Origin: a virus
Taxonomy: Duplodnaviria > Caudoviricetes
Direction: 5' to 3' (one strand)
IMG/VR virus record: IMGVR_UViG_2894272399_000002
Span: 17,174-81,173 of that record
DNA: 64,000 nucleotides
The notes under the pieces are model-generated. The model was given only the letters and a program-made list of their open reading frames with translations, searched no databases and had not been told where the DNA came from. The position numbers were made by a program, and so were the translations under genes. Positions 4,293-64,000 of this stretch are shown here, in pieces (position 1 is the stretch's first letter; each line of letters begins with the position of its first letter).

Positions 4293-4799
4293 TTACGCGA
4301 CTTTCGGCCCGAATTTCCATGGCCCTGTATTCGCTTTATCAGGCTTGAGAACCGAAAGCAAAAGCTGAGCAGTGAACAATCCGTCTTTCTGAAGATTGTA
4401 AGCAGCCTTTGCGGAGATCTGAACGCGAACGAAAGTGAGGTAAAATCCTTTTTTGGGAACAATACGAATTGACTTTTCAATGGTCTGCGCCTGCAAAGGT
4501 GCCTCCCAAACTTTGGCGTCTCCGGAACCGGTTACGGCCCCACCGAAATAATCAACCATTTTATCAGGTGTCATATCCATGACGGACATGTTCAAAGTAA
4601 GCGCTCCCTGAGTCACATCCTTGTCGAGTGGTTGATCTGACTGGATGGACATAAAATCTTTTGTCGTCGGATCAGCCTGGGTCAATGATGCAGTTTCATC
4701 CGCATAAACCGCCCCGACTGTTTCCCAGACGGTTGCAACACCGCCATCTTCGGCTATATCGCCAAATTCGACATCACTGGTACCCCTGGTTACTGCCAT
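4293..4799 (-). CDS. Major tail (tube) protein
   Basis: 168 aa, beta-rich; canonical position upstream of chaperones and TMP. Confidence 0.8.
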   Translation of the reverse strand: MAVTRGTSDVEFGDIAEDGGVATVWETVGAVYADETASLTQADPTTKDFMSIQSDQPLDKDVTQGALTLNMSVMDMTPDKMVDYFGGAVTGSGDAKVWEAPLQAQTIEKSIRIVPKKGFYLTFVRVQISAKAAYNLQKDGLFTAQLLLSVLKPDKANTGPWKFGPKVA

Positions 4800-4846
4800 T
4801 GTCGTGTGTGTTTATTATTAGTGTGTGTGATTACCGGTTACCCGGC

Positions 4847-5251
4847 TTATGCATTATAAATCGTATGATCAATTCTGAAATTGATATAGTGTTGTCCTAT
4901 ATCCGGCTCTTGAAACACTCCCTGACCGGCAACCCAAAAATCATGATCATCAGTACTGAATTCTTTCAAGAGCTCAATAGCCAAATCGGAGAGAACCTTT
5001 ATCCTTCCCGAGTCCTTGATATTGTGGTTCGAAGAGCCTGGAACGGAAACGTCCTTTACATAAATGTTGACATTAGCAACCGCTCTCTGAATTCCTCCTA
5101 CCGTGATGGTCAGCGAATTGATGACAATGTCCTCGAGTTCAGACCCTGCGGCCCTTTCTCCCATCCAAACCCCGCCATTACAAGCCAAATCCAGATCACT
5201 ACCTTTGATATGTTCAAACAGAATGGACTCAACATCGGAAGTGGTTCTCAT
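4847..5251 (-). CDS. Tail terminator/completion protein
   Basis: 134 aa; synteny; VNIYV and HYINFRI strands. Confidence 0.65.
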   Translation of the reverse strand: MRTTSDVESILFEHIKGSDLDLACNGGVWMGERAAGSELEDIVINSLTITVGGIQRAVANVNIYVKDVSVPGSSNHNIKDSGRIKVLSDLAIELLKEFSTDDHDFWVAGQGVFQEPDIGQHYINFRIDHTIYNA

Positions 5252-5754
5252 GTCATTCGGTTAATATTGGCCTTCAACTGCGAAACCATTCGAGGCAAAT
5301 GTTCTTTGGCGTAAAGCTCTGAGCTCGTCAGAACGTCCTTGCCTTTCGATTCGACCGCCGCAGCGTAATTCATTCCTGCAACGACGATCAGCACGTAACC
5401 TCTGGGATATCCTTTTGCCAGACTTTCCGCGAAGCTTTTCCCGGTTTGTACCCCGTCGGCAGATCCTTTGGTCGTCTTTGTTTTTCCAGCCTTGGTTGTG
5501 CTGGTCACTGATGCCGACCGTTTGAAATCCCCTTTTATGATCACCCCGTCTTTCAACAGGACATAACCAATCGAATTTCTAAGGTTTCCCGTTTGGTCTT
5601 TGTAAGTATCCAGTGAGCGGGCAACGTTGACACATTGTTCTCCCAGGTACTGCAGCCGGTTTACAATCGCTTTGTCGATCCTTGCCATCCGGTCCTCCAA
5701 GGACTTTCGGATATCGCCGATCTTGAAAGTTGGTCTTAGGCCCATATCCTGCAA
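5248..5754 (-). CDS. HK97 gp10-like neck/tail completion protein
   Basis: DQTGNLRNSIGY and YAAAVE motifs; synteny. Confidence 0.75.
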   Translation of the reverse strand: MQDMGLRPTFKIGDIRKSLEDRMARIDKAIVNRLQYLGEQCVNVARSLDTYKDQTGNLRNSIGYVLLKDGVIIKGDFKRSASVTSTTKAGKTKTTKGSADGVQTGKSFAESLAKGYPRGYVLIVVAGMNYAAAVESKGKDVLTSSELYAKEHLPRMVSQLKANINRMT

Positions 5755-35679: not shown

Positions 35680-35738
35680 ATTTTTTTCTTGACAAGTTGG
35701 CTCAAGCTTGTTCACCTTTGCATAAAATCAGCGAGGAC

Positions 35739-36203
35739 ATGGGAGCGTTAGCCATTATTGAAACCGAGAACTTAGATGTGTTTGCCTGCCCACAGCAGCG
35801 ACCTATTATTTTACCACTAATTCCGGGCATCAGTGCCGGATTCCCCTCCCCCGCGGCTGATTTCATTGATTTAAACATCGATCTCTCAAAAGAAATCGTC
35901 AAAAACCCTTCATCAACATTCTTTGGTCGTGTTAAAGGCGACAGCATGCACGGGGCTGGCATCGACGACGGTGATATCATGGTCGTCGATAAAAGCCTTT
36001 CGTGTAAAGAAGGCGACATTGCTGTTTGCTTTGTGGACGGCGAATTCACGGTTAAACGGATCCGTTTCGAAAAAGACGCATGCTGGCTGATTGCCGAAAA
36101 CGACAAATACCCTCCTATCCGAGTAACCGATGATAACGAAATGGTAATCTGGGGAATAGTAATCAGCGTAATTAAATTCTTCGGACATGTTCGCCCTCGT
36201 TGA
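35739..36203 (+). CDS. umuD: UmuD-like S24 autoprotease (Pol V accessory)
   Basis: SAGFPSPA cleavage site, GDSM serine, FTVKR lysine. Confidence 0.93.
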   Translation: MGALAIIETENLDVFACPQQRPIILPLIPGISAGFPSPAADFIDLNIDLSKEIVKNPSSTFFGRVKGDSMHGAGIDDGDIMVVDKSLSCKEGDIAVCFVDGEFTVKRIRFEKDACWLIAENDKYPPIRVTDDNEMVIWGIVISVIKFFGHVRPR

Positions 36204-37449
36204 CTGCAATAATTTTTACGCTAGTTGTGAGCGGTTGTTTCGGCCTGAACTGAACGGTAAGCCGGTGGTGGTGCTTTCCAACAATGACGGGTGCGTGATT
36301 GCGCGGAGCAACGAAGCGAAAGCCCTGGGCATTGAAATGGGTGCGCCCGCGTTTCTGTTTGAAAAAAAGTTCAAAGAGCAGCACATCAACGTGTTCAGCA
36401 GCAACTATGCACTTTACGGTGATATGAGCAGCCGGGTAATGACTATTCTTTCCAAATACTCACCAGATGTCGAAGTCTATTCGATTGACGAAGCGTTTTT
36501 GAAGTTCGACGGCTTTAAGCTCTTCGATCTTAAAAAGATCGGCGAGCAAATGAGAAAGGAAGTCACAAAAAGCACAGGGATACCTATCAGTGTCGGCATT
36601 GCCCCGACAAAAGCGCTGGCCAAGCTTGCAAACAAGATCGCCAAGAAGTTCCCTAAGCAGACCGGTGGGGTTCACGCGATCGATACGCAGGATAAACTGA
36701 TCAGAGCAATCGCCTTTTTCAAAATCGGGGACGTTTGGGGCATTGGCCGACAGCACGAGAAGCGGTTAAAAGCAGTGGGGGTTGAATCGATTTTAGATTT
36801 CACGCTCTTGCCGGAAGATTGGGTTAAAAAACAGATGTCGGTTGTAGGGCTCAGGCTTCAAAAGGAACTTGCCGGGATCCGCACACTTGACCTAGAAGAC
36901 ACAAAGGACAAAAAGAACATCGCTGTTACCAGGTCTTTCGATGAGAACTATACAGAATACGGGAAAGTAAAGGAGCGGGTAATCACATTTGCCACGATTT
37001 GCGGGGAAAGGCTCAGAAAACAGGATAGTTGTTGTAATGTGATACAGGTCTTTGTGCACACAAATACGTTCAGGCCGGAACAGCCTCAATATAGTCGCTC
37101 CGTCACAATTGACCTTCCATACCCCACAAATAGCAGCATGGAGCTTGCCCATTTTGCCGTGGATGCTTTGCAACGAATCTACAAAGATGGTTACGGCTAC
37201 AAAAAGGCTGGAGTGATCGTGATGGAATTTACCCCGGCAGATAGCAAACAGCAAATGCTGTTTGAAAACTCCGACCCGAAACAGGGCAATTTGATGGCCG
37301 TGCTCGATAAATTAAACAAAGCACTCGGGCAGCAGAAGGTGAAGCTTGCCTCCCAGGATCTTGACAAAGTATGGAAGATGAAACGGGCGAAACTTTCTCC
37401 CAGGTATACCACTCGACTTGATGAAATCATAACGGTGCACTGCCGGTAG
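36187..37449 (+). CDS. umuC: Y-family DNA polymerase V catalytic subunit
   Basis: DCNNFYASCE, SNNDGC, YSIDE; C-terminal W.MKR..LSPRYTT. Confidence 0.95.
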   Translation: MFALVDCNNFYASCERLFRPELNGKPVVVLSNNDGCVIARSNEAKALGIEMGAPAFLFEKKFKEQHINVFSSNYALYGDMSSRVMTILSKYSPDVEVYSIDEAFLKFDGFKLFDLKKIGEQMRKEVTKSTGIPISVGIAPTKALAKLANKIAKKFPKQTGGVHAIDTQDKLIRAIAFFKIGDVWGIGRQHEKRLKAVGVESILDFTLLPEDWVKKQMSVVGLRLQKELAGIRTLDLEDTKDKKNIAVTRSFDENYTEYGKVKERVITFATICGERLRKQDSCCNVIQVFVHTNTFRPEQPQYSRSVTIDLPYPTNSSMELAHFAVDALQRIYKDGYGYKKAGVIVMEFTPADSKQQMLFENSDPKQGNLMAVLDKLNKALGQQKVKLASQDLDKVWKMKRAKLSPRYTTRLDEIITVHCR

Positions 37450-55927: not shown

Positions 55928-56079
55928 TTTGGGCCCCTGAATCTTTGAAAGTGAATGTATGCGTAGATTAAAAAGTTTGGCGTCACTGCGATTACCCCGA
56001 GGATGCTGACGAGTGACCAGATGAGCTTTGAAGGCGATAACCTTTCAATAATTTTCGTTTTCATTTCATATAGGAGGAG

Positions 56080-56382
56080 TTAAGTTGGTTTACGTTTGTG
56101 GATCCGGTTGTCGGAAAGAAACTGATCAAGGTCTTTTTTACGGTACGTGATCTTTTTCCCGTACTGGGAGAATGGGATCACGTGGTTATTTTTCAAAACA
56201 TGCAGCCGGCCGGTTGAATAGCCCAGGTACAATGCAGCTTCCTTGTGAGTGAAAACATTAGGGTCTCGTTCCTGTTCGTCCACTTTCTGCTTCATTCCTT
56301 TGACATCCTTTTGAATGTTGATAAGCATTTCAGTCCACTGGCTCCAAACGGCCCTGTCGAGAATGATTACGGAATCTGACAT
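56080..56382 (-). CDS. Excisionase-like HTH protein
   Basis: THKEAALYLG...IPFSQ.GKKI.YRKKDL. Confidence 0.8.
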   Translation of the reverse strand: MSDSVIILDRAVWSQWTEMLINIQKDVKGMKQKVDEQERDPNVFTHKEAALYLGYSTGRLHVLKNNHVIPFSQYGKKITYRKKDLDQFLSDNRIHKRKPT

Positions 56383-56618
56383 TGTTTTTCGATTTTAACC
56401 TGTTTACGGTACTTATCCATTGCCTCAATCAAATCATCGATAGATTTGTAAAATGCTGCCCTTTCGCGGGGATCTTCTTCTGGTTCCAAAAGACTGTCAG
56501 CGAACATGCTGAACAACCTGGCTTTGTTTACTTTCTTACCACCGTCGTTGTAATACAGAAACTCGGCAACTGCTTTTTCGAGGATCTTTACCGATTTGGG
56601 ATGAGTCTGCATTTTCAT
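56367..56618 (-). CDS. Hypothetical protein; paralogue of the next gene
   Basis: L..MF.DSL motif. Confidence 0.6.
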   Translation of the reverse strand: MKMQTHPKSVKILEKAVAEFLYYNDGGKKVNKARLFSMFADSLLEPEEDPRERAAFYKSIDDLIEAMDKYRKQVKIEKQCQIP

Positions 56619-56641
56619 TTATTGGTGGGTTGATGAATTCT

Positions 56642-56854
56642 TTAAGCCAATCCGCTGGATGTATCGATCATTTCAAGTATTCCGTTGACTAGGTCGAGTC
56701 TTCCTGCAGGTGGGTGTTCTGGGCTTGCTTTCAAACTGTCCTGGAACATGAGCCACAGCTGCATTTTCAATTCATTTTTCTGGCCCAGGCGGAAGAGCTC
56801 AGCGATTGAAGTTAAAAGCGGGTCTTCTGGGAAGTGGTTTAGGGAAGTTGTCAT
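56642..56854 (-). CDS. Hypothetical protein; paralogue of the previous gene
   Basis: L..MF.DSL motif; start placed at ATG 56854. Confidence 0.6.
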   Translation of the reverse strand: MTTSLNHFPEDPLLTSIAELFRLGQKNELKMQLWLMFQDSLKASPEHPPAGRLDLVNGILEMIDTSSGLA

Positions 56855-56855
56855 G

Positions 56856-57626
56856 TTACTGAGCGGATAGAAACTTATGAATGAAGTACTGTTGTCCTTT
56901 ACCATTGACCTTTACCGTGGGTTTCAAAAAGGCACTGGCTGATCCTTCGTGTATTACTGTCTCCTTTACCCGGAACACTTTAAGATCAATTGCCCGCTGC
57001 GTTGGCCAGTACTGGATCTCGTACTTATTTTTCTTGGTGCTCCAACGTTTGCGTCTTTCCAGATAACCGCCTACCACCATCCATTCGTACAGCCGGTGTT
57101 CACCGATCACAAATCCGTTTTGAGCAATCAGCTTTGCCAAGTCCCTCATTAAGATGTCGGTTTCGCTTGTGGAAACGGCATCGGCGAAGGCAACTTTTGG
57201 TTTGTCGGCTTCAATTTGCTTGGTGGCTTCGTTTAATTGGAGAATTGCTTTTTCCTTTTCAGTTTCGGCTTCCAGTGCCATTTGCAAAATTTCCCTCCGA
57301 GACAGCTCTTTCGATGTGACAATTTCTTTCAATCGCTTTTCGCAAGCGATAAAGTACTGGCGGGCCTGTTTTCCTTTTTCTGAACGTTGGATCATCGCGA
57401 TTTCCTTGGCACAATCCAGTGTCAGTATAAAGTCATGCTTCATAACCCCTTGACTTACAGTCGTCTCTTTTTTGAGATAGTCAACATCCTTTTGGAATCC
57501 GTAATCAAACATTCGGTGAATCCAGTCAATGAAATTCGATTTGGGACCAAGAAAACTGTAAAGTTCCCGACCGTCTACAACTTGATTCCCTTTGGGAGTG
57601 CAACTCACTTTGATCAGCTCGTCCAT
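56856..57626 (-). CDS. Phage antirepressor (AntA/AntB plus KilAC domain)
   Basis: VDGRELY.FL, AKEIAM, ARQYFI.CE, PKVAFADAV and GKGQQYF. Confidence 0.92.
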   Translation of the reverse strand: MDELIKVSCTPKGNQVVDGRELYSFLGPKSNFIDWIHRMFDYGFQKDVDYLKKETTVSQGVMKHDFILTLDCAKEIAMIQRSEKGKQARQYFIACEKRLKEIVTSKELSRREILQMALEAETEKEKAILQLNEATKQIEADKPKVAFADAVSTSETDILMRDLAKLIAQNGFVIGEHRLYEWMVVGGYLERRKRWSTKKNKYEIQYWPTQRAIDLKVFRVKETVIHEGSASAFLKPTVKVNGKGQQYFIHKFLSAQ

Positions 57627-57631
57627 TGTTC

Positions 57632-57850
57632 TTAAACAAGTTGAAGTTTGGTTTTTGTCAATTCAAGTACTTTGGCCTGAGCCTTCAAAATATCCATCAT
57701 CGTCGTTGCTCGGACGTACTTTTTGCCGTTAACCGCTCGTGCATAGGTCATACGCGACACACCGCTCATTGTAACCGCTTCTGTAACTTTTCCAAGACTC
57801 TTCAACTCCTGGTGCCGCTGACGTATATTTTCCTTAAAATCGATGTCCAT
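57632..57850 (-). CDS. Cro-like HTH protein
   Basis: EAVTMSGVSRMTYARAVNG HTH; divergent from the repressor. Confidence 0.65.
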   Translation of the reverse strand: MDIDFKENIRQRHQELKSLGKVTEAVTMSGVSRMTYARAVNGKKYVRATTMMDILKAQAKVLELTKTKLQLV

Positions 57851-57898
57851 TTGGCTACCTTTGTTAGTATAATTTGTGTATAATTGAATTAACATGTA

Positions 57899-58092
57899 CA
57901 AAGATATGCGAGATTTCTCGCATTTGCAAATAAATATGCAAGAAAAATCGCAAATAAAACGAAATATCTTGCAATTCCTTGAATATAAAGGGATTGGAAA
58001 ATCAGAGTTTTATCGACAAACAGGGATAACACGCAGTGTGCTAGACCAAAACAACGGAATGAGCGAAGATAATCTTGCGAGATTTCTTGTAA
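57899..58092. promoter_or_regulatory. Early leftward promoter and repressor operators
   Basis: Minus strand TTTG (57927-30)-N20-TATCTTTG (57899-906). Palindrome ATGCGAGA-TT-TCTCGCAT at 57906-57923, with variants at 57936, 57957 and 58075. Confidence 0.8.
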
Positions 58093-58409
58093 AGTTCCCC
58101 GAGGTGAGAGCTGAGTGGCTTATACTTGGAGAAGGGGAAATGTTGAAAGCAGAAAATAATTCAGAAAATGCTGCAACCACAATAGAAAAAAAATCGAACC
58201 AAGTCGAGGTATTAAAAACCGAGTTGCTCGCCGCGAATGACTCAATCAAATTGATGCAGCGCCAGATAGTTACATACTTAGATATTATAGATGATCTTAA
58301 AAAAGAGAATAAGGAGCAGCAGGACAAATTCTCTCAATTACAGGAAACCGCATCCAAGTTGGCCGAGGAAATACAAAAGTCACAAAAGCTCAAAATGCTT
58401 AAATTATAG
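57936..58409 (+). CDS. CI-like repressor (XRE HTH plus coiled coil, no S24 protease domain)
   Basis: IK..ILQFLE.KGI.KSEFYRQTGI...EWLILGEGEM; start placed at ATG 57936. Confidence 0.8.
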   Translation: MQEKSQIKRNILQFLEYKGIGKSEFYRQTGITRSVLDQNNGMSEDNLARFLVKFPEVRAEWLILGEGEMLKAENNSENAATTIEKKSNQVEVLKTELLAANDSIKLMQRQIVTYLDIIDDLKKENKEQQDKFSQLQETASKLAEEIQKSQKLKMLKL

Positions 58410-58612
58410 TGGATGATTTATCAGTTAGATATCATGAGTCCAACGAAAGGATAAAACTCATGGAACGGCAAATTTCTGGGTATCTTGATGAGATTGAAAG
58501 ACTCAGAGCAAAGGTTGAGATTGAAGAAAAAGCCTATGCCGCATTAAATGGATTATTCACGAAACTCATAGATCAAAAGATGGCAAAAGGGCAGTTTGGC
58601 TCACTTTCATAA
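58409..58612 (+). CDS. Stand-alone copy of the repressor coiled-coil domain
   Basis: NERIKLMERQISGYLDEIERL versus repressor NDSIKLMQRQIVTYLDIIDDL. Confidence 0.7.
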   Translation: MDDLSVRYHESNERIKLMERQISGYLDEIERLRAKVEIEEKAYAALNGLFTKLIDQKMAKGQFGSLS

Positions 58613-58655
58613 TTTAGAATTCAATAAATAGCTCACAATAAACCCTAATCTATCA

Positions 58656-58802
58656 ATGGAAACAAATGAAACTATTAAACAGATGCAACGCCAGATCTCA
58701 TGTCACATGGATATTATTGAGCGACTGAAGCGCGAGAACCAGGAGCTCCGAAAGAGTAACACCAATCTAAAAAATACTCCGATGGTTTTTTCTGAAATGT
58801 AG
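58656..58802 (+). CDS. 48-aa second stand-alone copy of the repressor coiled coil
   Basis: Manual translation METNETIKQMQRQISCHMDIIERLKRENQELRKSNTNLKNTPMVFSEM. Confidence 0.65.
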   Translation: METNETIKQMQRQISCHMDIIERLKRENQELRKSNTNLKNTPMVFSEM

Positions 58803-59010
58803 TTTGCCCTTCTGGAATTTAGTTTGGTTGCTGTGAAACGGAAATAGAACTATATCGACTTAGATCGTAATAAAACATCAAAAACAAAATAACAATTGAA
58901 TAACCCACTAGTTTAAAATCAGTTACATTATACACCGATAAGAATAATTATACTTGAAATTGTACCATTTGACATTTTCATATTTACCCCCTCTCAATAC
59001 TTATACGCGC

Positions 59011-59550
59011 ATGAAGAATTTAATCTACTTAGCAATCACTCTAACCATATTAGGTGCCGGAGGTTACTATTACTGGTCGACACAAAAGGTAAAAAAATAC
59101 GAGCAAGGTGCTCAGGAGTCTGTACAAACCATGTTACTGACAGCTCAGTTAGGGGAATCGGTTATCGATCTGTACTCGACTGTTTGGAGAAACGCTATTT
59201 ATAAAGAGGGTGGATATTTTAATAGGGAAAGCGAGTACTATTTAAAAGATTTCAATGAAGCATTGTCGGCTGCCCAGGCAAATTCTGTCAAGAGTACTGA
59301 CATGATACTGAAAAGCACAATGCACATTGACTCGTTGGTAAAATCTCTAAATGACCCTCCGGCAAAATACCAAGCTCTCCACGTCAAACTGATTGATTTA
59401 TATGGGATCTATAATGAGTATGTTTCATTAGCTATCGCCCCAAAAGGTTCGTTAACCAGCTTTAATGATAAGACCAACGAACTTTCAAGTGCCTTACTGA
59501 AGGTTAGAAAGGAAATACTGGTCCAGATGCCAGATCAAAAAATTGAGTAA
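59011..59550 (+). CDS. N-terminally membrane-anchored helical protein (superinfection-exclusion position)
   Basis: Single TM then a helical domain; downstream of the repressor. Confidence 0.65.
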   Translation: MKNLIYLAITLTILGAGGYYYWSTQKVKKYEQGAQESVQTMLLTAQLGESVIDLYSTVWRNAIYKEGGYFNRESEYYLKDFNEALSAAQANSVKSTDMILKSTMHIDSLVKSLNDPPAKYQALHVKLIDLYGIYNEYVSLAIAPKGSLTSFNDKTNELSSALLKVRKEILVQMPDQKIE

Positions 59551-59554
59551 TCAC

Positions 59555-60603
59555 TCCTTAAACCGATCCGTAACAGTATTGAAATCCCTGAGAACAAATA
59601 GATTTCTAAATAAAAATATTTCCTAAAATGCCAGAACCCTCTCCCAGTCTATCAGCAATAAAAGATGCCCTAAGCAAAATAAATATCGACGACTTGCAGA
59701 TTCAATATGATAAAGTGACCAAAGGACAGCTTACGAAGACCAGGTTCAGCAATTTGAATCATTTTAAACAGGCCATTGATAGCATTGAGTCCTTGGGGTT
59801 AAGATTTCATTTTATCAATCTATTAAAAGAGTCAGAAGTATATCTAACTAATTATGATAGTTTCTCGGTGGAGGGATTATCTGGACAAGGAATAATAGAT
59901 TCATCGTACATGCTACATAGCCAGATAGCTTCAATATTAGATTTCTTGAACCAAACGATAAAAGCCGACCCACCCGAAGCCATTCGAATCAAGATCCCAG
60001 AATCGGACGATTTCCAAGAGATGGCTGTGCATTTAAATGATTTCAAAAAAGCTATTTCGATACCGATTCTTCACCCGGATGTTAACGGGCAAGTGAAAAT
60101 TTTAAGAGGAGAACCGGGCTCGGTTTTGCTAGTCGTTTGGCTTGGAACATTAAAAGCCTGTAAAATGGTCGCCGAGCTATGTTGGTCAACAATGGTGATC
60201 ATTCAAAAAAAGGAGGAGATAGAACGATACAAGGAGCACACCCGCACACTAGAACTTGAAAATGATTACAAAGAGGCAATTTTAAGAGCCCAACAAAAGC
60301 AATTAGATAAGTTCACTGAAATAGAAATTACAGGGATTTTGGATAGAGAAGATATCACTCCTAATCCTGAATATATTCAAACCTTGAAGATGTCTATTAA
60401 TACACTCGACCATCTATTCAGAAAAGGAGCAGAAATTCAACCAGCATTAGGTGCACCGCAAGATGTGATCAAGCAATTCCCCAAGATGGAAAAGATGTAT
60501 CAAATCGAATCGAAGGTCAAGCAAATAGCTGAAATAGCAACCCCGGAGGCGGAAGTTAAAAAAACGAGAAAAAAGAAAGGAGTTAATCCTTAAACCGATC
60601 CGT
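59555..60603. repeat. 17-bp direct repeat flanking one gene
   Basis: TCCTTAAACCGATCCGT at 59555-59571 and 60587-60603. Confidence 0.8.
59628..60593 (+). CDS. Uncharacterised moron protein; paralogue 1
   Basis: IRIK.PE..DF, RGEPGSV and AELCW shared with the next gene. Confidence 0.75.
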   Translation: MPEPSPSLSAIKDALSKINIDDLQIQYDKVTKGQLTKTRFSNLNHFKQAIDSIESLGLRFHFINLLKESEVYLTNYDSFSVEGLSGQGIIDSSYMLHSQIASILDFLNQTIKADPPEAIRIKIPESDDFQEMAVHLNDFKKAISIPILHPDVNGQVKILRGEPGSVLLVVWLGTLKACKMVAELCWSTMVIIQKKEEIERYKEHTRTLELENDYKEAILRAQQKQLDKFTEIEITGILDREDITPNPEYIQTLKMSINTLDHLFRKGAEIQPALGAPQDVIKQFPKMEKMYQIESKVKQIAEIATPEAEVKKTRKKKGVNP

Positions 60604-60772
60604 CCAGGGAGGCTGAACTATCCAAAGTCCGACAAGAGCCGCGCAGCAAATGATAAGTATACATTGAGCAGGAGCGCTCAGCTTAAAAAATAAGGATGTA
60701 AGATCTTCCATAGTGTGAGAAAATTGATCTCAAAGTTAATAGGATTTTAGAATATATGTATTTCCTGGTATT

Positions 60773-61690
60773 ATGAACATAATTGAGTTCAAGAATGAAC
60801 TAAGCCGAATTAACTTCGGCCCACATAACTTCGCAATTGATAGGTACTTCGACCCGAAAAAATCAACCAATATGGTGAAGGTGTCGGGATTTAAAAATTT
60901 CCGGTGGTCATTGGACGAGTTAGAAAGAACTGGAGCATTCAACTCTATAATCAACGCGCTCAAAGGGACCACGTTGCTAACAATTGAAGACGACACCTTC
61001 TCCCTCCCAGAGGAGGTCTATTCAGTGAGTGTCCCGTACTTAAATGACCTAAATAATTCCTACAAAGCATTTGTCGAGTTTCTGGAGCACAATTTCCCTG
61101 AACCAGAGGGTGAATCAATTAGAATTAAGCTTCCAGAAACAGAAGATTTCGACGAATTAGAGAAAACCGCCAATCTTTTAAAACACGCACTTTCAACTCC
61201 GTTAAAACTGCCTGAGATTAACGGATCATTAAGGATAATCAGAGGTGAACCCGGATCGGTCTGGCTGTTGGTAGGGATAGGCGGTTTGATAGCTATGAAA
61301 TTGATTGCTGAATTGTGCTGGGCTGCCGCAGTTGTTAGAAAAAAGAAACTAGAAGGGGACTTTCTTGCACAGCAAGTCAGGGAACTTGAAATGAATGTCG
61401 ATCAAAAGGAAGTCGTCTTCGAGGCGCAGAAGGTTTATATTAACAAACTTATCGAGTCTGAGGGGGAGGCGCTTCTAACGAAAATGGACCTCCCAGAAGG
61501 ACACATAAAGTCCATAACTCATGCAATAATTTGTTTAGAAGAAATTTTCAAAAAAGGTGGCGAGGTACATCCAAGTTTAACGACCTCTGAAAGTGTCGCA
61601 AATTTATTTCCATCTAATTCAAATTTCCACATTCTCGAGTCTCATATAAAGCAACTTGGAGACCGTACCAACTCCGAATCTAACATATAA
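60773..61690 (+). CDS. Uncharacterised moron protein; paralogue 2
   Basis: Shares the motifs listed for the previous gene. Confidence 0.75.
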   Translation: MNIIEFKNELSRINFGPHNFAIDRYFDPKKSTNMVKVSGFKNFRWSLDELERTGAFNSIINALKGTTLLTIEDDTFSLPEEVYSVSVPYLNDLNNSYKAFVEFLEHNFPEPEGESIRIKLPETEDFDELEKTANLLKHALSTPLKLPEINGSLRIIRGEPGSVWLLVGIGGLIAMKLIAELCWAAAVVRKKKLEGDFLAQQVRELEMNVDQKEVVFEAQKVYINKLIESEGEALLTKMDLPEGHIKSITHAIICLEEIFKKGGEVHPSLTTSESVANLFPSNSNFHILESHIKQLGDRTNSESNI

Positions 61691-61697
61691 TCCACAC

Positions 61698-62558
61698 ATG
61701 GCAGAAGAAGTACCAAAGGATCAACCTACTGAACCAAAGAAAAAAAGATTCCGCAGATCAACCACACCGAAGAAGAAGCCGGTAAAGACTGCGGATCTGC
61801 CCGATTCGATTGAAATTTTTGAAAGGTTTAACCAGGTAGTCGATTACTTATTGAAGGAGAAAATAATGAAGAGTAAATATTACTTCACAAATAAGTATGG
61901 CCTGGGTGCTACGATCTTCAGTTTAAAATCAAACAGTAAAACCGCGTCCTTAGTGCCGGCCGCGTTCCTGGCGCTTTTAGTGAAAGAATTCGGGGTTTCT
62001 GCTCATTGGCTTTTGACAGGTGAGGGCCCGATGACCTACAAAACAATAAAACCTGAAGATCAGGAGGAATATACTTTCCTGAATGAGGTCAAAGAATTTG
62101 ACTTAGATGCACTCATACCGCACCATGCGACGCTATGGATCAATAAACCTTTAAAGATCTATAAAAGGGAAGGCTCCAAAAATTATTTCCTTTACGATAG
62201 CGAGACCAAAAAGCTTTTTGAATTTGAGTCTGGGGAGTTCAACCCGTTGACAAGAGCAAATGAATACAAAAAAGTCTTGAAAGCGTTTCGGGAGAAATTT
62301 AAACCAATATTGGATTACAACTTTACCAGAGAAGTAACAGATTTCAATATCGATGAGTACAGGCAAGTAGCAAGTTGGATCAGGATAAAGTTTTTCACAA
62401 TATATAGCAAACCAGGTCTATCTACTTTCTTTCTGTTGGATCAGAAACAAAACAGACTGTTTGAGTTTATCGCTCTCAATCATTTCAAACTTGACGACGA
62501 GAAAGAGCAGCGCAAAGTTGTTAAAGAATTCCGCTTGATGAACTTCGATAATAATTGA
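61698..62558 (+). CDS. HTH regulator-like protein with a tandemly duplicated C-terminal domain
   Basis: FGVSAHWLLTGEGPM ends an XRE-type domain; two ~78-aa repeats follow. Confidence 0.65.
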   Translation: MAEEVPKDQPTEPKKKRFRRSTTPKKKPVKTADLPDSIEIFERFNQVVDYLLKEKIMKSKYYFTNKYGLGATIFSLKSNSKTASLVPAAFLALLVKEFGVSAHWLLTGEGPMTYKTIKPEDQEEYTFLNEVKEFDLDALIPHHATLWINKPLKIYKREGSKNYFLYDSETKKLFEFESGEFNPLTRANEYKKVLKAFREKFKPILDYNFTREVTDFNIDEYRQVASWIRIKFFTIYSKPGLSTFFLLDQKQNRLFEFIALNHFKLDDEKEQRKVVKEFRLMNFDNN

Positions 62559-62704
62559 ATTAGGACTGGATAACGGGCTCCCGAGTGGACTTTCAGTGTC
62601 TATTATTTTGAATTTTACTTTCGGAAAACAGTTTGTTAGCTAACTGATTGAACAAAATGACCCTAAGCATTTAAAAGTATTGGAAACCAAAAATCAATCA
62701 AGAA

Positions 62705-64000
62705 ATGGTTGCTTTACTAATATTCCTTCTGGTAATCTCGATTCTCAACCTTATTTTGTCTGTCGCTGTTTTACGGGCTGTATCCATATTTTTTCGTTCA
62801 AGGCCTGCCGACACGCATTATATTCTGGCATCTGCCAAAAGGTCTAAGTACATTGAAGTTTTAGTTGATGGTTTAGAATATGGCGAAACTAAACGGATAG
62901 TTTACAATGCGCGGCCAAGAACAAGCGAGGATGACATATTCACATGGTATAATGATCTTAATAAAGATAAGCCCACAATCAAAGAATTATTGTTTGTGAC
63001 AGACAGAAAATTTGTTGCTGATCCAGAAAGCAAGTCGACTATTTCTGAGCGGCCAAATCTTTACATTCATGCAAAAAAATATTACGGCACAGAGGGGGTG
63101 GATTATCCTATGGGATATGAGTTAGGCCGATGTTGGGTATCCATTCCCAAGAGCCATAAATACGGAGGCTTGGAAAAACCTTTCAGCGTCTTTGGCTTGC
63201 AGCTGGAAGCGGAATCGGACCAGGATCATATCGTCTTTAAAGGGTTGGAAAAATTTACTTATGAATATTTTTGCGACTATCTAAAAAGCCACGGAGGAAT
63301 ATCGAAAAGCGCCTTGGTCTATATTCATGGATACAACACGAGTTTTGACGACGCCGCAAAACGAACAGCGCAAATGGTTTATGATTTAAATTTCGGCGGT
63401 ATTGGGATGTTCTATTCGTGGCCATCGCAAGAAAAGACAGTCGCCTATCCAGTCGACTCTGCAAATATCCCCTGGACGGAGATTCACTTAACAAATTTTC
63501 TACAACATTTCAGCAATATCGAAGCTATCGAGAATTTATACATTATTGCGCATAGTATGGGCACCCGACTAGTAGAAAACGCTTTGACGGCACGCAAACA
63601 GCGGGGTAACCCAAAACAAGTTATTAGGGAATTAATACTCGCCGCACCTGATATAGACGAAAGGATTTTTAAAGAGAAGATTGCTCCAATACTCCCAGGA
63701 GTTGCAGAGAGAACGACTGTCTACCGATCCGGCGACGACGTCGCGCTACTTGCCTCCCACAAGTTCAATGGTTTTGCCAGACTGGGCGATGTTCGTAATG
63801 GCATCAACACATATAAGCAGATTGATATGATCGATGCGACCGGGTTCAAAACCGACTTTCTTGGTCATAGCGACTATGCGTCTTCTCCTGAGTTATTATA
63901 CGACATTAACGGGGTTCTGGCAGGCAAGCCGATTTCAGAAAGACCGCGGCTATTAAAAGAGGAACATGATCCTGTCCCTTATTGGAGAATTTACAAATAG
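62705..64000 (+). CDS. Alpha/beta hydrolase (DUF900-like) with N-terminal TM
   Basis: FVTDR, YIHGYN, SWPS, AHSMG, LAAPDID and GH..Y. Confidence 0.88.
   Translation: MVALLIFLLVISILNLILSVAVLRAVSIFFRSRPADTHYILASAKRSKYIEVLVDGLEYGETKRIVYNARPRTSEDDIFTWYNDLNKDKPTIKELLFVTDRKFVADPESKSTISERPNLYIHAKKYYGTEGVDYPMGYELGRCWVSIPKSHKYGGLEKPFSVFGLQLEAESDQDHIVFKGLEKFTYEYFCDYLKSHGGISKSALVYIHGYNTSFDDAAKRTAQMVYDLNFGGIGMFYSWPSQEKTVAYPVDSANIPWTEIHLTNFLQHFSNIEAIENLYIIAHSMGTRLVENALTARKQRGNPKQVIRELILAAPDIDERIFKEKIAPILPGVAERTTVYRSGDDVALLASHKFNGFARLGDVRNGINTYKQIDMIDATGFKTDFLGHSDYASSPELLYDINGVLAGKPISERPRLLKEEHDPVPYWRIYK

Follow-up and report, generated by a model that had tools for sequence, protein, structure and literature searches.

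The window, that is, the whole stretch of 64,000 nucleotides that was analyzed (G000:C37:135113-199112 within an 8.4-Mb genome), is phage DNA, as judged from its gene content. Structural genes encode a tape measure protein, the major capsid protein E, a terminase, and an SPP1-type portal, while replication and repair genes encode RecT, an SMC-like ATPase, a replication protein, and a UmuC-like polymerase. The latter, a Y-family enzyme with IMS, IMS_C, and DUF4113 domains, is found at 35697-37449 on the plus strand and is preceded by a 168-aa ORF. Two divergent gene sets meet near 57.9 kb. The leftward set comprises, in order, a cro-like small HTH gene heading the divergent early operon (57632-57850, minus strand, 72 aa from the ATG at 57850; weak LacI-HTH match in Pfam), directly followed by an antirepressor gene with AntA and KilAC domains (ant; 56856-57626, minus strand; PF08346 at 8e-20, PF03374 at 9e-22, and phrog_63 at 1.6e-55), and then a gene for an HTH_17 protein. 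The rightward set begins with a repressor gene (rep; 57936-58409, plus strand) and two small ORFs, orf67 (58409-58612, plus strand) and orf48 (58656-58802, plus strand), and continues with genes for a membrane protein, two tandem paralogs, a second CI-like HTH protein, and a DUF900 hydrolase. The first three ORFs of this set had been singled out in an initial annotation made from the sequence alone, and all three exist as described there.

The -7 element of Bacteroidota promoters has the consensus TAnnTTTG. Inside the divergent region, this pattern occurs once per strand, at 57856-57863 on the plus strand, suitably placed for a rightward rep-orf67-orf48 transcript, and at 57899-57906 on the minus strand, for a leftward cro-ant transcript. 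The next match on the plus strand is found only at 63266, and the pattern is not enriched over the window as a whole (39 matches versus 49 expected). As no -7 box lies between the repressor gene, orf67, and orf48, the three genes likely form one operon. A scan with a sigma-70 model, which is ill-suited to Bacteroidota, showed no enrichment and was discarded. Abutting the leftward -7-like box is a perfect 18-bp palindrome (57906-57923), the candidate main operator, and a motif scan revealed three degenerate operator-like copies at 57937-57952, 57958-57973, and 58076-58091. When matches with at most three mismatches were counted across the window, 4 of 12 fell within 185 bp (57908-58090), the perfect palindrome (57908-57921) included. 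Boxes and palindromes together fit a repressor that binds its operators as a dimer, with rep, orf67, and orf48 transcribed as one unit.

Positions 56000-64000 are missing from 40 genomes of the same genus, except for a 104-bp piece of ant in one of them, indicating that the whole stretch is accessory. The cro-like gene region (57632-57906) is present at 95-99% identity in contigs of four unrelated runs, all diverging just beyond it, and one of the four contigs runs into another member of the same repressor family; this indicates that immunity modules have been exchanged in a mosaic manner at the cro/repressor boundary. Matches to contigs of the four runs are confined to 57632-57997 at most and 58867-58967, and none extends over orf67 or orf48. 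The second of these segments is a non-coding stretch of ~100 bp between orf48 and the next gene, found at ~88% identity in the contig of another run with flanks that are unlike on both sides; no second copy exists in the genome and Rfam returned no match for it. Rfam likewise identified no family within the window, and no tRNA was found there. The tandem paralogs farther downstream (59628-60593 and 60773-61690, plus strand) encode proteins of 321 and 305 aa with 32% identity (E 5e-52) and a central hydrophobic segment, for which Pfam, PHROG, and PADLOC yielded no family. We regard them as an old tandem duplication which, like the helix copies described below, sits in the same accessory stretch. 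The second CI-like HTH protein (61656-62558, plus strand, 300 aa; phrog_9710 at 4e-14, weak Phage_CI_repr match) adjoins the DUF900 alpha/beta hydrolase (62705-64000, plus strand, 1.2e-39), and the two may constitute a regulatory or accessory pair of their own, rightward of the immunity region. PADLOC gave no defence-family match for orf67, orf48, or the five genes downstream.

The repressor is a 157-aa protein whose start was assigned to the ATG at 57936 because the MQEKS start is invariant across its family. It comprises an XRE-type HTH (residues 6-64), a disordered linker (65-78), and a single long helix (79-156). In the AF2 model, built on a 12-row alignment (pLDDT 87), the N-terminal domain forms five short helices, and the C-terminal helix extends over 78 residues with a pLDDT >90. 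Foldseek related the N-terminal domain to XRE/Cro-CI HTH proteins with probabilities of 0.9-0.99 but E values >0.07, and its weak matches include C.BclI, HipB, TP901-1 CI, P2 C, SinR, AimC, and the 434 repressor. A PDB sequence search gave nothing below E 0.18, and for the long helix PADLOC reported only a weak match to the JetC coiled coil (E 3e-4).

By its N-terminal domain, the protein belongs to a family of Bacteroidota phage XRE-type repressors with the signature MQEKS...LDQNNGMSE...WLLTG. We recovered 129 homologues at E<=1e-3, which have the N-terminal 70 residues in common and differ in their C-terminal parts, and a 12-sequence alignment of the family showed 26 invariant columns. In cultured or assembled phages of Porphyromonas, Flavobacterium, and Bacteroides, the tblastn matches fall under genes annotated as repressor. 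Peptidase_S24 (PF00717) was detected in 23 of the 120 N-terminal-domain homologues listed, and many of the others, 115-205 aa long, carry unrelated coiled-coil tails. Given that family members carry either S24 or some other coiled coil, the C-terminal module can be considered an oligomerization or induction module. In the window's repressor, Pfam found no PF00717 match at E<=0.1 and AF2 modeled the C-terminus as one helix, as expected from the initial annotation, whose term "protease-less repressor" is a fair description of a presumed repressor of the lytic promoter, a role to which the divergent cro-like gene, the perfect 18-bp palindrome, and its three degenerate copies point indirectly. Other arrangements also occur in the family. 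Two pairs of IMG/VR loci (L045/L046 and L056/L057) encode proteins of 265-276 aa that, judged from sequence, appear to combine an S24-like middle with an extra C-terminal coiled-coil tail. In Porphyromonas phage013a (L063) and Flavobacterium phage fF4 (L064), the repressor homologue is located no more than ~2 kb from the end of the genome, divergently from an operon leading to a transposase; from this layout, both appear to be Mu-like transposable phages. By contrast, we noticed no transposase in the window's phage, which encodes RecT and an SMC-like ATPase.

Both small ORFs encode paralogs of the repressor helix without the rest of the protein. BLASTP aligned the repressor with orf67 over 16/46 identical residues (E 5e-7) and with orf48, the copy closest to it, over 19/47 (E 7e-11), while orf67 and orf48 share 15 of 24 residues (E 2e-9); the alignment of the copies has 14 invariant columns. 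The recurrence of the repressor's C-terminal part in both ORFs, as first proposed, was thus recovered, with the refinement that the recurring stretch covers residues 101-125 of 157 and stops short of the extreme C-terminus. Its shared core of 24 codons lies at 58233-58304 on the plus strand (residues 100-123), with I, M, I, Y, I, and L at the heptad a/d positions followed by Asn125 at "a". Across the 8.4-Mb genome, the three proteins are each other's sole matches. A profile built from them was searched against 1.84 billion representative proteins and returned six matches at E<=1e-3, of which three were the window's own and the others were P0123, P0124, and a repetitive 568-aa protein that we took as noise. 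So few profile matches indicate that the shared motif is not a generic coiled-coil similarity. A Pfam scan found no HTH in orf67 or orf48, in line with the initial annotation, and their Pfam and PHROG matches amount to sub-threshold coiled-coil noise. One of them, ZapB (PF06005), scored 22.0 bits with orf48 and 13.7 bits with orf67 against a cut-off of 31.5, and was rejected as generic coiled-coil similarity. AF2 modeled orf67 as a helix over residues 3-59 (pLDDT 92) followed by a disordered GQFGSLS tail. In the ESM Atlas, the nearest clusters are small viral hypothetical proteins (scores 0.91-0.92), which we treat as a lead only. As for orf48, said earlier to be missing from the ORF track, it is present in the public protein collection as P0122 (source NCBI).

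The substitution pattern within the 24-codon core shows long-term purifying selection on its reading frame and excludes recent debris. Nucleotide identity between copies is only 51-60%, yet 13-14 of the 24 residues are identical, and the differences are concentrated at third codon positions (18/35, 15/29, and 17/30). Nei-Gojobori estimates over the core gave a pS of 0.87-1.03, i.e., saturated, versus a pN of 0.26-0.36, and with dS saturated, the share of constraint on any single branch is inseparable from that on the others. Random placement of an equal number of changes reached the observed amino acid identity in at most 0.035% of 20,000 trials (P <= 3.5e-4), and Fisher tests on the core gave P values from 1.3e-7 to 1.7e-4. 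Codons for Ile, Leu, Arg, and Gln vary between copies while the residue is unchanged. The signal also holds for the orf67-orf48 pair, in which the repressor is not involved.

Each small ORF also has one relative elsewhere. P0123, a 59-aa singleton from a 698-bp contig of an unrelated metagenome, is 56% identical to full-length orf67, including the C-terminal GQxGSLS tail. P0124, an 84-aa singleton from a 48-kb contig, matches orf48 over 17/30 identical residues (pairwise E 5e-10), and its predicted form bears a hydrophobic N-terminal extension. Together with the purifying selection, these relatives of orf67 and orf48 speak against unconserved duplication debris, an outcome that the initial annotation had named as fatal to its proposal. 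The start of orf67 was also reconsidered. Databases hold this protein as a 50-aa form beginning at Met18 (P0121), which would cut the motif, and a word-based search with orf67 retrieved only this form of itself. The longer form starting at GTG 58409 appears better supported, since the conserved motif extends to residues ahead of Met18, where the copies show synonymous differences, and since P0123 includes these residues as well; this GTG is the sole canonical start in the open frame. It overlaps the TAG stop codon of the repressor (TAGTG), suggesting translational coupling. We also weighed a frameshift fusion between the repressor and orf67 but rejected it, as the junction has no evident slippery site and the orf67 homologue is free-standing.

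We then asked how common the arrangement is. Among genomic loci, a repressor homologue could be translated in 21, and each was screened for another occurrence of its repressor's C-terminal part, after three further incomplete loci had been dropped. Only one of the 21 contained such a copy (L029, 13/16 identical, E 0.001), and it was rejected as a second example: the fragment has stop codons on both sides, is flanked by tandem duplicates of the gene that follows the repressor, and is debris. In this Bacteroidales locus (4594-5280), the repressor is followed by a tandem duplication that yielded ORFs of 120 and 82 aa with near-identical membrane C-termini, and the untranslatable 16-residue remnant of the repressor tail sits between the duplicated ORFs. 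The locus seems to capture a stage through which copies of the helix could originate. None of the 17 viral loci from IMG/VR showed a second copy at E<=0.05, with three pairs among them being duplicates and three loci running off the locus end. Of the conservation that the initial annotation had suggested checking in related phages, P0123 and P0124 are single relatives of the individual proteins, and the arrangement is not recurrent (0/17 viral and 1/21 genomic loci). orf67 was absent from 200 genomes of the family, where the best non-self match (E 0.002) falls inside a 269-aa frame, and from 400 genomes of the order, the INPHARED phages, and IMG/VR. Alignment-based scans of IMG/VR and metagenomes for relatives of the small ORFs found nothing, and a scan with P0124 returned only an unrelated coiled-coil ORF (L042). 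With relatives that are singletons and an arrangement that does not recur in the family, this rarity limits the generality of any conclusion.

The shared helix was next considered as a coiled coil, with heptads read from the alignments. Core a/d residues (I-M-I-Y/H-I-L) are alike in all copies, and the next "a" position is occupied by Asn in the repressor, orf48, and P0124, by Val in orf67, and by Ile in P0123. In coiled coils, beta-branched residues at "a", Leu at "d", and a buried Asn favor parallel in-register dimers. Both the alignments and the AF2 models show hydrophobic a/d heptads within a continuous helix, from which we infer that the helix is probably a parallel dimer. Positions g and e carry few charges, so that core packing would decide pairing. 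Since orf48 keeps Asn at the same core position, it is the likelier direct partner of the repressor. The Val of orf67, by the rules just mentioned, disfavors such pairing, and this copy may have shifted toward a different partner. Some exposed residues are also conserved in four to five of the five sequences, namely, Arg and Asp at "f" and Gln at "g". A plain coiled-coil partner would not need them, and their conservation points to a possible shared third partner or higher-order assembly.

The explanation that we tentatively favor, by analogy with SinI/SlrA-SinR or AimX-AimC, is that orf67 and orf48 titrate the dimerization helix of the repressor. In this model, rep, orf67, and orf48 would form one immunity operon of a Bacteroidota prophage, and the repressor would act as a dimer on palindromic operators, held together by a parallel coiled coil in place of the S24 domain of its relatives. 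The small proteins, ancient copies of the helix kept by selection and devoid of a DNA-binding domain, would most likely join the repressor in mixed coiled coils. Such a heteromer, having a single HTH, should bind DNA poorly; titration of the active dimer would thereby set the threshold and the steepness of the lysis-lysogeny switch. Within this model orf48 is the likelier direct partner, orf67 having Val instead of Asn and a conserved tail of its own. Several points count against titration. Translational coupling of an antagonist to its target implies constant production, which suits a tuner rather than an inducible trigger. The Val of orf67 and the conserved exposed residues also fit it poorly, the family shows no recurrence of the arrangement, and orf67 was absent from the genome and phage collections named above. 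A more elaborate version, in which the immunity operon carries its own titration buffer, two HTH-less helix paralogs produced along with the repressor, that turns a protease-free repressor into an ultrasensitive switch, with orf48 pairing with the repressor and orf67 docking a trigger (Ant or a host factor) through its tail, strikes us as rather unlikely. If true, this buffer with split roles would be the first sequence-evident case in which microproteins regulate lysis-lysogeny, and the first known from phages of Bacteroidota. The idea of a microprotein-type control put forward in the initial annotation is plausible, but less new than was implied, as SinI/SlrA-SinR and AimX-AimC precede it.

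Among the alternatives to titration, the one that survives best is that orf67 and orf48 are independent small coiled-coil proteins, real and translated, which self-associate or pair mutually and have a function unrelated to the repressor, e.g., an accessory role in the lysogen such as exclusion or host modulation, as for genes adjoining repressors in other prophages. We consider this doubtful while taking it seriously. Divergence between the paralogs is deep, their synonymous sites being saturated, orf67 has lost the core Asn and shares its C-terminal half and tail with P0123, and the genes downstream, including the tandem paralog pair, look accessory and are of unknown family; the ESM Atlas lead to small viral hypothetical proteins goes in the same direction. 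However, the part that was conserved is precisely the a/d core of the repressor together with the same surface residues, which is unexpected after a change of partner, and orf67 is predicted to be translationally coupled to the repressor.

In a second alternative, which we judge improbable, the motif docks a third protein (Ant or a host factor) and orf67 and orf48 act as decoys that compete with the repressor for this shared ligand, buffering induction. The solvent-exposed Arg and Asp at "f" and Gln at "g" conserved in four to five of five sequences would then be the docking surface, and an AntA/KilAC antirepressor is encoded on the opposite strand ~300 bp away. A repressor devoid of a self-cleavage domain should moreover need some protein partner for its induction, which also counts in favor of decoys. 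Against them, ant belongs to the repressed lytic operon behind cro and would be made only after derepression.

It is less probable still, and in our view quite unlikely, that the small proteins are positive cofactors, with a mixed bundle (e.g., of two repressor and two small helices) stabilizing the repressor or linking operator-bound dimers so that repression is strengthened. The hydrophobic face of the motif is widened, positions e and g being hydrophobic too (L/M and I), co-expression from one operon fits a stoichiometric subunit, and the four phased operator-like sites suggest cooperative binding; yet elsewhere in the repressor family no such partners are needed. Finally, it is highly improbable that the two ORFs are untranslated or decaying duplication remnants without function, for although they are very short, have singletons as their only relatives, and resemble a repressor-tail fragment in L029 that is clearly debris, all three pairs, orf67 versus orf48 among them, combine saturated synonymous sites with a pN/pS far below 1, the frames are intact, and P0123 matches orf67 along its entire length.

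Little is known of lysogeny control in temperate Bacteroidota phages, and the many members of this repressor family with coiled coils in place of S24 raise the question of how they are induced. The locus described here offers candidate regulators that are paralogs of the repressor's own helix, with a likely answer on induction readable from the sequence and a small, testable system of three proteins. Our literature searches brought up no case in which a phage repressor gene is followed by genes for paralogs of the repressor's coiled coil. Non-cleavable repressors as such are familiar from the Gifsy prophages and from systems of the P22 Ant type, where they are inactivated by protein antirepressors unrelated to them in sequence. 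Like these, the window's phage combines a repressor lacking S24 with an Ant-family gene in the same immunity region; unlike them, its repressor helix and small proteins are paralogous. Proteins reduced to the oligomerization domain of a DNA-binding paralog, and poisoning its oligomers, are also known as microProteins in eukaryotes, such as Id and LITTLE ZIPPER. In bacteria, truncated H-NS paralogs of the H-NST type are reported to be oligomerization-domain-only paralogs that poison the DNA-binding oligomer in the same manner (PMC7074111). H-NST, Id, and LITTLE ZIPPER all differ from the present case in their protein families and hosts, and none of them targets a phage lysis-lysogeny repressor.

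The closest parallels are SinR of Bacillus subtilis and AimC of arbitrium phages. The SinI domain, i.e., the helical hook, which we take to be PF08671, had no Pfam match at E<=0.1 in the repressor, orf67, or orf48, and SinR chains are among the weak fold matches of the repressor N-terminal domain. B. subtilis has two small SinR antagonists, SinI and SlrA, which share the helical hooks of SinR; sinI adjoins sinR and is partly bicistronic with it, and 1:1 heteromers block SinR tetramerization and DNA binding (PMC3917956). As in SinR, an XRE-type HTH repressor with a helical oligomerization module is accompanied here by two small HTH-less homologues of that module, in this case encoded adjacent to it. 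Unlike in SinR/SinI, the module is one long heptad-repeat helix and not two helical hooks, both small genes lie downstream with one of them apparently translationally coupled, the setting is a Bacteroidota prophage, and the heteromer is a prediction. The second parallel is AimX, a protein of 29-80 aa that, in the accessible text of the preprint, binds the oligomerization domain of the non-cleavable phage repressor AimC, prevents its dimerization and DNA binding, and is likened to SinI by the authors (bioRxiv 10.1101/2025.11.23.689978). Here too, small phage proteins are associated with a non-cleavable phage repressor, to which we propose by analogy that they bind, and the weak fold matches of the repressor N-terminal domain include an AimC structure, 9iaq (rank 16). 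The same text presents AimX as driven by AimR/AimP signaling from a gene opposite to or overlapping aimC, and does not, in that portion, describe it as a sequence paralog of AimC (bioRxiv 10.1101/2025.11.23.689978), whereas orf67 and orf48 are evident paralogs encoded in the same orientation as the repressor, and Pfam scans of the neighbors showed no arbitrium genes. By sequence, the rep-orf67-orf48 set thus belongs to neither the SinI nor the AimX family. If titration is confirmed, it would extend the principle of SinI-SinR and AimX-AimC to another phylum and would indicate that tandem duplication of an oligomerization module is one route by which antagonists of this kind emerge.
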